Source: Candidatus Woesearchaeota archaeon
GTDB taxonomy: Archaea > Nanobdellota > Nanobdellia > SCGC-AAA011-G17 > GW2011-AR18
Direction: 5' to 3'
Assembly (NCBI GenBank): GCA_018303515.1
Contig: JAGVXZ010000025.1
Span: 1 to 37,391 of the forward strand
DNA length: 37,391 nucleotides
Shown here: piece by piece, positions 25,898 to 30,763 of the stretch
Layout of the letters: every line of letters begins with the position of its first letter
Position numbering within the stretch: position 1 is the stretch's first letter
Translations under genes and position numbers: made by a program
The notes under the pieces: model-generated
Databases searched by the model: none
The model's input: the letters and a program-made list of their open reading frames with translations, nothing else
Told to the model about the DNA's origin: nothing

Positions 25898-26796
25898 CAC
25901 AGAATAATTTGATAGATGTAGATGAAATATTAGGTTTGGAAGATCACGAATTAATTGATAGAGATGGTGAAGCTAATGAAAGAATTAAAAGATTTTTAAA
26001 CGAAAAATTACCCGTAATCACAGTTGATGGGAATATTGGTTTTGGAAAAACAAGAATAGCTAAAACAATTGCAAAACACGGTGCGGTAATTTCATTGGAA
26101 GACGATACTGATCCCGTTCTTACTCAATTATATTATGAAGTTGGTCGTGATGTATTTGGAACTATATTACAAGCATACTTACTAGCTAAAAGAGCAGCAC
26201 AAAGTTGGGATGGTTTTTTAGAAGTAGTTTCAGGTAGACCTTTTTGTACTGACCGCTCACCATATGGGGAACTGATGTTTATTGATGCCTTAAATAAAAT
26301 TGAGGACGAAAATGGTAAAAAGAATATTGAGGATGAAGCTGCAGCAGGACTTTATAAGGCCTTTGAATTAGTATTTTCTAGAGGCAAAGAATATAAAAAT
26401 GCTTTATTAAATTACAAATCAGATTTATTAGATAGTACCCACGTTGCCAGATCAAAATTATTAAACTTTAAACAGAAAGGTGGCTCCCCTCCACCCGACA
26501 TTCTTGTTCTTTTACATGGTGATAGACAAGTTGCTTGGAATAGATTGAGTGTTAGGGGGAGAGATTACGAGGGCAGTGGAGATTCAACCCAAGGTTTACC
26601 CGAAAAATTGCATATGGCATTACATTGTGCTTATGATAATTTTGAGGAAATAGTTAGAACAAAAGGACTTTATGATGGCCAAATAATATATCTCGAACAA
26701 CCAAAAGTAAACCTTGCAACTAAAAAAGGTGAGTTAGTTTTACTAGAAAGCCTTCTTGCTTTAGAAGATAGATTAGATAACAGAAATGGATTATAA
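25894..26796 (+). CDS. deoxynucleoside kinase family protein, copy 2 (divergent, N-terminal extension)
   Basis: 300 aa with an ATGA overlap with copy 1. It has P-loop DGNIGFGKT, EDDTDPVLTQLYYE...LQAYLLAKR, TDRSPYGELMF and lid RLSVRGRDYEG. Confidence 0.75.
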   Translation: MTQNNLIDVDEILGLEDHELIDRDGEANERIKRFLNEKLPVITVDGNIGFGKTRIAKTIAKHGAVISLEDDTDPVLTQLYYEVGRDVFGTILQAYLLAKRAAQSWDGFLEVVSGRPFCTDRSPYGELMFIDALNKIEDENGKKNIEDEAAAGLYKAFELVFSRGKEYKNALLNYKSDLLDSTHVARSKLLNFKQKGGSPPPDILVLLHGDRQVAWNRLSVRGRDYEGSGDSTQGLPEKLHMALHCAYDNFEEIVRTKGLYDGQIIYLEQPKVNLATKKGELVLLESLLALEDRLDNRNGL

Positions 26797-26943
26797 CAAC
26801 TCATCTTTAAAATGTTTATTCTTCTTTTGACAAGAATTACAAACTACTTTTTTTTTACCGTTTATAATTACATAACTACCAACAATTTTTCCTAAAAAAG
26901 TCTCTTCAATCTTTTCCTTGCATAACTCACATTTTAAGGCCAT
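26791..26943 (-). CDS. 50-aa zinc-ribbon micro-protein (hypothetical)
   Basis: Not in the ORF track. My codon-by-codon translation is MALKCELCKEKIEETFLGKIVGSYVIINGKKKVVCNSCQKKNKHFKDELL-stop, containing CxxC...CxxC. TTTATATA lies about 25-30 nt upstream of the ATG, a leaderless-type geometry. It is 30 nt downstream of the TK1-like gene. Confidence 0.45.
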   Translation of the reverse strand: MALKCELCKEKIEETFLGKIVGSYVIINGKKKVVCNSCQKKNKHFKDELL

Positions 26944-26973
26944 ATCATAAAGTTAATTTAAAAATATATAAAG

Positions 26974-27837
26974 CTAATCAAATTTAGTAAATAACTCCCC
27001 ATCATTAGTTTCAATCACCATTCTCGCAACTTCATCATTAACTAAAAAGTTTAAAATCTCTTCTATGTTAGGCGTACTCTCAAATCTTCTTTTAACAGCT
27101 TCCCTCTTTCTCCCAGGATGTTCATCGACAAATTCAGCAATTTCTAAGACCTCTTCTTTGTAAGGTACTTCAAAGTGTTCTTCACATAATATAGCATATG
27201 GACTATCCCCATCCCTAATAGTTCTATCAAAATAAGGTGCTCTACTTAATCCATTCTCTACTTTACCTTCTCTATGAACCGCAACATTCCCAGAATTAGA
27301 TAAAAACCTTCCTGTATAGCTTGATTTTTTTCCACAAGGTTTTCCATTAACATCAATCATACAATAACCATGAAAAATTTCAACATTTTCAGGTCCAGCA
27401 AGTTGCATTAAATCTCCCATTGGCCCAAATGGATTTCCTCTAAAATCTAAATCTAATCCCCCAACAAGAACCGCCCTTTTTTTTCTAGCTATTCCTGTTA
27501 AAACTGTTGGTAATTCTCTATCCCAAAAATTCCCTTCGTCAACAATTAAAGTAGAAACCCTCTCCCCTCTTTCTCTCTCAAGAGTTGCAATATACCTTGG
27601 AATTTCACTGGATTTATTCAAAACTTTTGCTTGAATAATTTTTCCTGTTCTACTTCTTATTATCTCACCATGGGTAGTGTCTCTTCCGTTTATTGCACTA
27701 TTGACTGCAGCATAACCAACACTTGCATGCGAAAGATCCTGTGCAAAGGCAATTAACTCATCAGTTTTCCTTGTCCACATAGAACCAGCAAGAACATGAA
27801 CCCTCCCAACAATATCATAATAAGAAATTCTTCCCAT
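26974..27837 (-). CDS. thymidine-kinase (TK1/type II)-like protein with non-canonical Walker A and C-terminal extension
   Basis: 287 aa, colinear with TK1 blocks. HVLAGSMWTRKTDELI aligns with GPMFSGKSTELI, LIVDEGNFW with IDEAQFF, and VLVGGLDLDFRGNPFGPMGDL with GLDxDFrxxpF. The Zn/lasso region reads YCMIDVNGKPCGKKSSYTGRF...YAILCEEHF. About 65 extra C-terminal residues are present. Confidence 0.75.
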   Translation of the reverse strand: MGRISYYDIVGRVHVLAGSMWTRKTDELIAFAQDLSHASVGYAAVNSAINGRDTTHGEIIRSRTGKIIQAKVLNKSSEIPRYIATLERERGERVSTLIVDEGNFWDRELPTVLTGIARKKRAVLVGGLDLDFRGNPFGPMGDLMQLAGPENVEIFHGYCMIDVNGKPCGKKSSYTGRFLSNSGNVAVHREGKVENGLSRAPYFDRTIRDGDSPYAILCEEHFEVPYKEEVLEIAEFVDEHPGRKREAVKRRFESTPNIEEILNFLVNDEVARMVIETNDGELFTKFD

Positions 27838-28042
27838 AAAAATGCAATACTAGAAGAATATTAAAACCTTCATCAAAACTTTAAAGTGAAAACTCCTTCC
27901 AAAGAAAAAATCTCCTCTCTTTTAGTAAACCTTTTTTCATAAGATAAAATGAGTAACAAAAGCCTATAAATCTTACTCACAAAATTTTATACATGGTGTT
28001 ATACAAATACTTATAAACTTTAAAATTAATGAATCTCTATAG

Positions 28043-28891
28043 GTGGTTTTGACAAAAATAATTAGACAAAAGGTCCAAGATTTTGTATTTCAAAAGCCTA
28101 GAACAGTTCAAGAAATTTCTGAATTAATTAAAATAAATTGGAGAACTGCAGATAGATATATTGAGAGAATAGGACAAGAGGAAGGAACAATAGCTGTTCA
28201 AACTTTTAGAGAAGGAACAAGAGGGTCATTAAAAATAGTTTATTGGATCAACCAACCTCAACAACAATCTTCTAATATTCAAGAAAGACTATTTAAATTG
28301 ATAGAATCCTCAAGGCATAAGGATGATTTTTCTCCCTTTGATATTTATCAATATTTAAATGATGAAAAAAGAAGGGCTTTTATTGAAGAAGATGTTGAAA
28401 AGAGTGAGAAATATTTAGATCAGGATTTAATAGAACTAATTTTAGAAACTAAAGAACAGTTATTAATCTTTTCAGGCAATTTATCTTGGGTAAACATTGA
28501 AAAGAAAAATAAAAGTTTTCTCAGTGGATTAAAGGAACTTCTCCAAAATGGAGTTTCAGTAAAAATACTTTGTAATATCGATATTGCAAGTATTCAAAAT
28601 GTAGAAAAGGTATTAGAATTAAATTTTCATTATCCCAAAAATCCAATTGAAATAAAACATTCAGAACAACCATTAAGAGCGTTTGTAGTTGATAACAAGT
28701 TTGCAAGATTTAAAGAATCAAAACACCCACACAATTATACTTTGCTTAAGAGAAAAACTTATATTTTCTATGAAATATTAGATGATTCTTGGATTGAATG
28801 GACAAAGAGAGTATTCTGGAATTTATTTAGATCTGGGATACCTGCAGAAAAGAGAATAAAGGACATTTGGTCAATTCAAAATCTAAAATAA
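28043..28891 (+). CDS. TrmB-like transcription regulator: N-terminal wHTH plus degenerate PLD-like domain
   Basis: 282 aa with a GTG start (no in-frame ATG nearby). The wHTH is PRTVQEISELIKINWRTADRYIERIGQEEG. The later segment IEIKHSEQPLRAFVVDNKF looks like an HKD motif with K replaced by E, as in the TrmB middle domain. Confidence 0.6.
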   Translation: MVLTKIIRQKVQDFVFQKPRTVQEISELIKINWRTADRYIERIGQEEGTIAVQTFREGTRGSLKIVYWINQPQQQSSNIQERLFKLIESSRHKDDFSPFDIYQYLNDEKRRAFIEEDVEKSEKYLDQDLIELILETKEQLLIFSGNLSWVNIEKKNKSFLSGLKELLQNGVSVKILCNIDIASIQNVEKVLELNFHYPKNPIEIKHSEQPLRAFVVDNKFARFKESKHPHNYTLLKRKTYIFYEILDDSWIEWTKRVFWNLFRSGIPAEKRIKDIWSIQNLK

Positions 28892-30213: not shown

Positions 30214-30220
30214 GGGACAA

Positions 30221-30277: not shown

Positions 30278-30763
30278 ATGCAATGCCCATACTGTTTAAC
30301 AGAAGATACAAAAGTCCTTGAGACTAGAGAAAATGATAATTCCACAAGAAGAAGACGTGAATGTTTGAAATGTGAAAAAAGATTTACCACTTATGAAAGA
30401 GTTGAATCATTAGATATCACAGTAATAAAAAAGAATGGTTCAAAAGAATCATTTGATAGAGAAAAGTTTAAGAGAAGTTTGCTTAAGGCATGTGAAAAAA
30501 GACCTGTTACGTTAGAAGTAATAGATAAAAATGTAGACAAACTTGAAACGAAATTAAGATCTCTAAATTCCACAGAAATAAACTCAAAGTTTTTAGGGCA
30601 AATTGCCATGCGTGCATTAAAAAATATTGATAATGTGGCCTACATAAGATTTGCATCTATTTACAAAGAATTTGAAGATGTGGGTGATTATGAAAAAGAA
30701 ATTATAAAAATAAAAGGGGTAATTAAAAATGAACGAACAACAAATTCAAATACAAAAAAGTAA
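30278..30763 (+). CDS. nrdR: NrdR transcriptional repressor (Zn-ribbon + ATP-cone)
   Basis: 161 aa starting MQCPYCLTEDTKVLETR...RRRRECLKCEKRFTTYE, followed by an ATP-cone (VIKKNGSKESFDREKFKRSL...VAYIRFASIYKEF). Confidence 0.9.
   Translation: MQCPYCLTEDTKVLETRENDNSTRRRRECLKCEKRFTTYERVESLDITVIKKNGSKESFDREKFKRSLLKACEKRPVTLEVIDKNVDKLETKLRSLNSTEINSKFLGQIAMRALKNIDNVAYIRFASIYKEFEDVGDYEKEIIKIKGVIKNERTTNSNTKK

Follow-up and report, generated by a model that had tools for sequence, protein, structure and literature searches.

Can a protein of the thymidine kinase 1 (TK1) family that carries an arginine in place of a P-loop glycine still work as a kinase? The question is raised by an open reading frame (ORF) on contig JAGVXZ010000025.1 (assembly GCA_018303515.1) of Candidatus Woesearchaeota archaeon. 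The whole stretch of DNA that was analyzed, hereinafter referred to as the window, has a length of 37,391 nt and is AT-rich (G+C content 26–34%); all coordinates are given for the forward strand. According to the sequence comparisons described below, the ORF encodes a long-form TK1 protein of a groundwater DPANN archaeon with a genome of ~0.7 Mb, and the chances appear evenly poised that this protein still binds nucleotide and acts as a deoxynucleoside kinase, its deviant P-loop being tolerated. It represents a known enzyme in an unusual form rather than a novel type of protein.

An earlier note on this DNA, made from its letters, had described the protein as colinear with type II thymidine kinase (TK), and database searches agree with this description. 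The Pfam profile PF00265 matched residues 11–180 with an E-value of 3.4e-16, covering profile positions 1–155 of 176, and the score of 60 bits passed the gathering cut-off of 20.6. A search of PDB sequences gave matches to thymidine kinases with a best E-value of 1.2e-13. The full-chain AlphaFold2 (AF2) model, built from 129 homologues, has a two-domain TK1 fold with a mean predicted local distance difference test score (pLDDT) of 95.4 and a predicted template modeling score (pTM) of 0.90. The most significant Foldseek match of this model in the PDB was 1xx6_A (E-value 2.1e-16, target-normalised TM score 0.88), and every PDB match listed is a thymidine kinase by its title, with target TM scores of 0.76–0.88. 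Since the Pfam, PDB-sequence and AF2/Foldseek analyses agree, the membership of the window protein in the TK1 family is secure by both sequence and fold.

The P-loop alpha/beta and zinc/lasso fold is the same as in the solved TK1 enzymes of Clostridium acetobutylicum (1xx6), Ureaplasma (2b8t/2uz3), Thermotoga (2orw/2qq0) and human (1w4r/1xbt). The window protein has in common with them the Walker-A Lys-Thr, the DE pair, the GLD-x-DFRG-x-PF motif, the lasso Arg and Tyr and four zinc ligands. It differs from them in the Arg at the second Walker-A Gly, in a first Cys pair separated by eight residues, in a lasso that is ~21 residues longer and in an appended winged helix of 65 residues.

The P-loop reads GSMWTRKT, as the earlier note had it, and departs from the canonical G-x4-G-K-[ST]: the first Gly and the Lys-Thr pair are kept, and Arg23 takes the place of the second Gly. 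Three HMMER alignments pair this octapeptide without gaps with GPMYSGKS, GPMFAGKT and GSMFSGKS, so that Arg23 falls in the very column occupied by the G-K-[ST] glycine of 1xx6, 2b8t and 8y7w. Its codon, AGG, is a single transition away from GGG. Two details of the earlier description had to be corrected. One residue was thought to be inserted before the Glu next to the loop; RKTDELI and GK[ST]xELI are of equal length, and none of the three alignments has a gap there. The same Glu, E27, was taken as catalytic; it is not the base, and the presumed base, E101 of the VDEGNFW motif, is retained. The E101 column contains Glu in 153 of the 156 aligned relatives that have an N-terminus. In Leishmania TK the base contacting the 5'-oxygen is E85 (PMC4433323), and by motif and spacing we infer that E85 corresponds to E101.

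The arginine codon is genuine. The 90%-identity cluster of the window protein has six members, which come from JGI, ENA, NCBI, Logan and MetaClust. The loop GSMWTRKT was found in all eight sequences compared (the window, P0001, P0162–P0166 and P0002), including P0002, which is 77% identical to the window protein along the whole length and has the same eight loop residues. Logan contigs of four runs from four different studies were compared over positions 26700–28100; three runs span the whole gene, the fourth extends over the P-loop region without a deviating letter, and no run differs at 27769–27771. Within the gene the four runs show only two differences, at 27334 (synonymous, codon 168) and 27341 (K166R). 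A sequencing or assembly error at the Arg codon is refuted by the eight identical loops and by the agreement of the contigs of four runs, and its probability is negligible. As for the conservation of the loop among homologues, which the earlier note had proposed to examine, with a normal loop in close homologues counting against its reading, the closest homologue keeps RKT and the more distant relatives mostly carry GK[ST]. Nine runs contained half or more of the sampled words of the stretch and are labelled as groundwater or soil metagenomes; no RNA run was present among the 16 runs found for the stretch.

The structural zinc site and the Arg/Tyr-held lasso of TK1 are also present in the window protein. 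The altered Cys spacing of this region, remarked on earlier, corresponds to C159-x8-C168 and C218-x2-H221 together with a longer lasso; C159, C168, Y214 and C218 are near-invariant among 129 sequences. The lasso from R177 to Y214 comprises 36 residues, and the matching R153 and Y169 of Leishmania TK are 15 residues apart (PMC4433323). The insertion contains a beta-hairpin predicted by the AF2 secondary structure (strands 185–189 and 192–199), ends in a conserved APY-x-D-x-T motif and is common to the long-form clade described below.

The C-terminal tail of ~65 aa has no counterpart in canonical TK1, as had been noted: Foldseek alignments to solved TKs end at ~213–235 columns, and residues 223–287 lie beyond every solved TK. 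Structure prediction of the tail, suggested in the earlier note as a check, pointed to a winged helix both by AF2 modeling and by structural comparison with VIA-align. In the full-chain model, helices occupy residues 227–239, 245–251 and 258–267 and strands occupy 274–276 and 281–284; in this model and in the tail-only model the order of the elements fits the winged-helix topology H1-(S1)-H2-H3-S2-wing-S3. The tail-only model was built from 10 sequences and has a pLDDT of 75.2. The pLDDT of the tail is 92–98 in the full chain (82 in the last partial block) versus 42–91 when it is modeled alone, which is consistent with docking of the tail on the core.

Comparison of the tail with 48,161 chains in VIA-align gave, for the top 50 matches, Z-scores of 6.3–7.8 and root-mean-square deviations of 1.9–3.4 with 58–64 of 65 residues aligned. 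Judging by the entry titles, we take these 50 matches to be winged-helix domains; the list is led by SSO6202 of the Sulfolobus PolB1 holoenzyme (5n41_A), MecI, ESCRT-II and the winged helices of RPA2/RPA32. Since the program warns that a Z-score below 8 may mean only a common arrangement, the tail is assigned a predicted winged-helix fold and nothing more specific is claimed. Sequence-based and other searches with the tail were negative: Foldseek with the tail-only model gave nothing at E ≤ 0.001 (by title, its weaker matches appear to be winged-helix proteins), Pfam gave only DUF3263 (E-value 0.068), the PDB profile search gave nothing significant (best E-value 0.016 for an unrelated reductoisomerase, 0.72 for FeoC) and the ESM Atlas gave no usable match. 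The net charge of the tail is −5 and that of its third helix, which is acidic and hydrophobic, is −4; across the long-form clade the charge of the domain ranges from −8 to +3. In DNA-binding winged-helix factors (MarR/ArsR/Fur-like) the recognition helix and wing would be expected to be basic or polar, an acidic tail being usually atypical of a DNA-recognition winged helix, and neither Pfam nor the PDB gave a family-level sequence match. The winged helix is probably a docked structural or protein-contact module rather than a DNA reader.

The distribution of this architecture was assessed in 201 genomes of the window's order, 102 of them of high quality. TK matches were found in 43 of the 201 genomes and in 30 of the 102 high-quality ones. 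Nine further genomes of the window's own family contain a gene matching the query out to residues 266–276, with a common enlarged lasso bearing the A-P-Y-x-D-P-T motif and a C-terminal domain whose hydrophobic third helix is conserved; some of these genes have a second copy of that domain. An exhaustive search of representative proteins gave 850 proteins at E ≤ 0.001 and only two at E ≤ 1e-30; the best non-self match was 36% identical. In the constructed tree (54 rows), 31 long forms and 23 short forms were separated by branches with Shimodaira–Hasegawa-like approximate likelihood ratio test (SH-aLRT) support of 99, and the window protein fell in the long-form clade. The enlarged lasso (~21-residue insertion) and the winged-helix tail define this long-form TK clade in Woesearchaeota-type archaea. 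Since the tail and lasso are common to related genes and to a supported clade, the tail is a feature of the clade and not a peculiarity of the window protein.

With its long-form relatives, such as the P0025 cluster, the window protein also has in common a second ligand pair C-x-x-[CH] followed by P-G-K, a third winged-helix segment of the pattern x-I-L-x-F-L-V and, as a trait of the whole clade, N-x-R-D instead of the D-x-R-[YF] hairpin motif of TK1. Most of these relatives have GGKT or SGKT loops, unlike the GSMWTRKT of the window; among 22 proteins assigned to the long form, 12 have Gly at the Walker-A position. Some relatives carry the second winged helix and reach 380–400 aa. The query lineage is at most 36% identical to all other long-form relatives and forms a long branch. 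The nearest named relatives belong to Candidatus Woesearchaeota metagenome-assembled genomes (MAGs); P0167 (MBT7902333.1), a member of the P0025 cluster, is named hypothetical protein or thymidine kinase in its sources. Among the papers listed by a full-text literature search, none described DPANN TK variants or a TK1 bearing a winged helix at its C-terminus. As a separate observation, three short-form TK loci of one genus (L010, L012 and L014, in genomes G182, G043 and G061) have two TAA stops within the match where the region of the query's tail was read through; presumably the match simply runs on beyond the real stop codon and the genes are not broken.

Loss of the second Walker-A glycine is not confined to the window. 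The residue at this position was compared in 161 proteins, 12 from the initial set and 149 from the representative search; related sequences are not independent, and the top 150 were picked by similarity to an Arg-bearing query, which means that the counts describe the neighbourhood of the query and not the family at large. Gly was present in 130 proteins and another residue in 26, and five were without the N-terminus. The 26 non-Gly residues (of 156 with an N-terminus) were Arg, Ala and Ser in six proteins each, Glu in three, and Leu, Asn, Asp, Trp and Lys in one each. Two of the six Arg cases represent the query lineage, and the four outside it are P0025, P0035, P0070 and P0127. Among the order-level loci with an N-terminus, 7 of 29 were non-Gly: Arg in the window, Leu in a genome of the same genus, Ala twice, Ser twice and His. 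When 185,579 species genomes were scanned with a pattern, 79 of 80 mostly bacterial loci had Gly, and the sole non-Gly locus (Ala) again belonged to a Woesearchaeota MAG. On the 54-row tree the state changes between Gly and non-Gly at least 12 times.

The remaining functional residues are retained in the proteins that lost the glycine. K24 and [TS]25 were found in 26 of 26, E101 in 25, D100 in 22 (with Glu in three more), R52 in 23 and Y214 in 25, and each of the cysteines C159, C168 and C218 in all 26. In the Gly-type proteins (n = 130), K24 is present in 130 and E101 in 128, the retention rates being much like those of the non-Gly set. The charge of Arg23 could also be thought to suit another nucleoside triphosphate or a polyphosphate-type donor, or to alter feedback by dTTP, the protein being an active kinase with changed donor chemistry; the earlier note had offered altered donor chemistry as one reading, beside a ligand-sensing or regulatory derivative. 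Phosphate-contacting arginines are also found in the P-loop of type I thymidylate kinases, where they occupy another place in the loop. Both the retained catalytic residues and the recurrence of Arg in 6 of the 156 proteins, four of them outside the query lineage, would fit such a change. This is nevertheless quite unlikely, since the residues found at the position (R, A, S, E, L, N, D, W, K and H) are chemically unrelated, which argues for tolerance and not for a specific function of Arg.

Since the catalytic and zinc residues are kept here, and since the same loss recurs in related TKs with the same retention, we infer that nucleotide binding and kinase activity are the most likely properties of the protein. 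In the proposed explanation, the TK1 core of the long-form clade carries the enlarged lasso and the C-terminal acidic winged helix. In the window lineage a single base change from GGG to AGG would have swapped the second Walker-A glycine for arginine and become fixed, and purifying selection would have preserved the Lys-Thr of Walker A, the Asp-Glu pair, the two lasso holders and the zinc ligands. The protein would still bind nucleotide and phosphorylate thymidine or deoxyuridine-type nucleosides, and the winged helix would serve as its docked structural or protein-contact module.

Several points weigh against retained activity. The glycine preceding the Walker-A lysine is close to invariant in active P-loop NTPases, and in small GTPases even Ala at the second Walker-A glycine destroys nucleotide binding; a bulky Arg at this position is a drastic change. 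Unlike typical TK1, the window protein falls below the cut-offs of all five NCBIfam thymidine-kinase equivalogs (NF003296–NF003300), the best of which, NF003296, scored 87.9 bits against a cut-off of 183, and the other four 16.5–32 against 195–375. The query lineage is off the long-form consensus at 25 of the 64 columns conserved at ≥60%. In the tree, the stem of the query pair has a length of 1.21 and the terminal branch of G044, a genome of the same genus, 1.62 substitutions per site, versus a median terminal branch of 0.52. G044 has the same gene order as the window, with identities of 51% for the deoxynucleoside kinase (dNK), 70% for a zinc-ribbon protein, 61% for a winged helix-turn-helix (wHTH)/PLD-like protein and 66% for Dcd; its TK-like product is only 29% identical to that of the window, with a loop GTMGSLKT that has Leu at the position in question. 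The long branches and the low identity to G044 fit relaxed or changed selection on catalysis. Thymidylate can, as far as the gene content indicates, be made without salvage, since the genome carries a 586-aa ThyX frame, which has two domain matches, as well as matches to thymidylate kinase; ThyA was not found in the searched genome.

The annotation result has a consequence of its own: the long form lies outside the current rules for a plain TK and, since the equivalog models miss it, deserves its own family model. As for the tolerance of P-loops, one study states that their positions vary widely in tolerance to change, with work that concerns the first glycine (PMC3019153), and the literature search on the Walker-A glycine in TK1 gave general P-loop papers only. 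Ala or Ser before the Walker-A lysine of the MCM helicase would be a precedent for an active P-loop NTPase lacking this glycine; the literature search, which included PMC2674469, did not confirm it. The MCM case would involve only small residues, in the AAA+ branch of the superfamily and not in a kinase.

A clade of the query and G044 was neither shown nor rejected (approximately unbiased test, p-AU 0.474); since it was not rejected, accelerated evolution of one orthologue is possible for this pair, and gene replacement is possible too. The long branches in the window's genus, the patchy occurrence of TK1 in the order (the 43 of 201 and 30 of 102 genomes given above) and the presence of ThyX as a route to dTMP could also suggest that the gene is drifting under relaxed selection toward loss. 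Such a course is very unlikely: the frame is intact in all sequences, the 77% identity with P0002 extends over the whole length, the query lineage keeps every near-invariant long-form column, the contigs of four runs hold only the two differences within the gene, and the genome is streamlined (0.7 Mb). Arg23 itself is fixed, being kept over the 23% protein divergence from P0002.

The genome comprises 700,147 bases in 52 contigs and is 91% complete, and the ORF of the window is its only PF00265 match. The neighboring genes encode two dNK-family proteins, a 50-aa zinc-ribbon ORF, the wHTH/PLD-like protein and a two-domain Dcd, and further neighbors are NrdR, an intein-bearing class II ribonucleotide reductase (RNR), PolB and IMPDH. 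The coordinates of the features are collected in Table 1.

Table 1. Features of the TK-like gene and of its neighbors in the window.
Feature	Position	Strand	Basis or remarks
Whole ORF, long-form TK1-family protein	26974..27837	−	287 aa and stop; ORF list, PF00265, AF2 model, Foldseek
Walker A/P-loop, residues 18–25, GSMWTRKT	27763..27786	−	Translation; aligned without gaps with the 1xx6, 2b8t and 8y7w loops
Arg23, codon AGG, at the second Walker-A glycine	27769..27771	−	Sequence; contigs of 4 runs; 8 sequences
D100-E101 in VDEGNFW, Walker-B-like Asp and presumed catalytic-base Glu	27535..27540	−	Translation, columns of relatives
Zinc/lasso domain, residues 151–222	27172..27387	−	Translation; ligands C159, C168, C218 and H221; lasso holders R177 and Y214
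Lasso segment, residues 178–213	27199..27306	−	Alignments and model; ~21-residue insertion
Predicted C-terminal winged-helix domain, residues 223–287	26977..27171	−	Full and tail-only models, VIA-align
Zinc-ribbon ORF, 50 aa	26791-26943	−	C-x2-C ... C-x2-C, core F-L-G-K-I-x-G-T-Y
wHTH/PLD-like gene, 282 aa	28043-28891	+	Divergent from the TK-like gene; weak Pfam hints
NrdR gene	30278-30763		2.4 kb from the TK-like gene
RNR frame, 1,590 aa	30729-35501	+	Preceded by the NrdR gene; Hint/intein-splicing and LAGLIDADG matches at two places

The zinc-ribbon ORF has no Pfam or NCBIfam match. It lies downstream of the TK gene on the same strand in eight of the nine other long-form loci and 2.6 kb off on the same contig in the ninth; it is beside the TK gene in 0 of 21 short-form order loci and in no other loci of the scan. 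It was considered as a specific partner of TK and rejected as such: it is present in 175 of the 201 order genomes (98 of the 102 high-quality ones), including family members without a TK match, and its position is taken to reflect synteny at the family level. It is a near-universal unnamed small protein of the order. One source names a relative of it aMBF1-like. A 52-nt core of the ORF (26884–26935) recurs on other contigs of the metagenome runs, with word depths of ~102–227 in the three longest listed.

The wHTH/PLD-like protein has no NCBIfam match. Its counterpart at locus L008 of the same genus is 61% identical, and another, 46% identical, lies beside a short-form TK in a different family (L027); since both adjoin TK genes, the gene is TK-linked in two families. 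In three of the four runs, the intergenic region between it and the TK-like gene (27870–28015) occurs as a pair of alleles that disagree at 14 of its 146 positions; the coding region is near-invariant.

The ThyX frame of the genome (contig C26, 3800–5086, loci L032/L033) is a single 586-aa frame with two domain matches. Frames of ~520–650 aa with two ThyX matches recur in many genomes of the order, which suggests that a tandem-duplicated ThyX is typical of it. ThyX was counted by hand in 32 of the 43 genomes with a TK match versus 68 of the 158 without one, the related genomes not being independent. A tie between the loss of the glycine and the presence of ThyX was also considered and rejected, as ThyX does not discriminate between the genomes with a non-Gly TK (7 of 7) and those with the Gly type (19 of 22).

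The surroundings of the gene bear on the possibility that the protein is a kinase-dead or impaired derivative that binds thymidine or dTTP, its winged helix contacting partners or nucleic acid, and acts as a sensor, regulator or scaffold of the deoxynucleoside triphosphate (dNTP)-supply genes. We regard this as less likely than retained activity. It would be in line with the location of the gene in a nucleotide-metabolism cluster, divergent from the wHTH/PLD-like gene, with the fused winged-helix domain, with the long stem branch and the 29% identity to a syntenic gene of the same genus that is also without the glycine, and with an Arg at a position that general P-loop knowledge treats as glycine-only; the presence of ThyX would make kinase activity dispensable. 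NrdR, a repressor with a zinc ribbon and an ATP-cone, offers an analogy for a regulatory role, being a nucleotide-binding domain joined to a contact domain and encoded at a dNTP locus; its fold is unrelated to that of the TK-like protein. The winged helix, however, occurs across the clade and is mostly paired with canonical GK[ST] loops, and the tail and its third helix have the acidic character described above. Lys24, Thr25, Asp100 and Glu101 are more important to catalysis than to the simple binding of a ligand, and they are kept here and in 25–26 of the 26 non-Gly relatives. Nor does the DNA upstream of the gene contain an NrdR-box-like element or a notable repeat. An exact 12-mer repeat upstream of nrdR occurs only at 30218 and 30250; as a candidate NrdR box it gave five matches at ≤2 mismatches versus 5.67 expected, none of them near 27838–28042, and the operator-like repeats upstream of the TK-like gene are only weak AT-rich ones.

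A more particular form of a sensor role seems unlikely. In it, the acidic winged helix of the long-form clade, whose nearest structural neighbors include the PolB1-binding subunit SSO6202, the RPA2/RPA32 winged helices and ESCRT-II, would dock the TK1 core to replication or dNTP-supply proteins of ultra-small archaea, and in this genus the core would be a kinase-dead sensor of thymidine or dTTP that tunes the dNK/Dcd/NrdR/RNR/PolB cluster. Canonical P-loop chemistry would have been lost, with Arg here and Leu in the sister genome, and a salvage enzyme would have given rise to a pseudo-kinase.

In P-loop enzymes the glycine that precedes the Walker-A lysine is regarded as all but obligatory, and the natural series of TK1 proteins described here replaces it at least 12 times, with residues as unlike as Arg, Leu, Glu, Trp and His, the other catalytic residues being kept. 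If these proteins are active, the P-loop of TK1 would be far more tolerant than textbook rules allow, which would bear on annotation and on the engineering of nucleoside kinases. If they are inactive, a salvage kinase would have been put to another use time and again in DPANN archaea.

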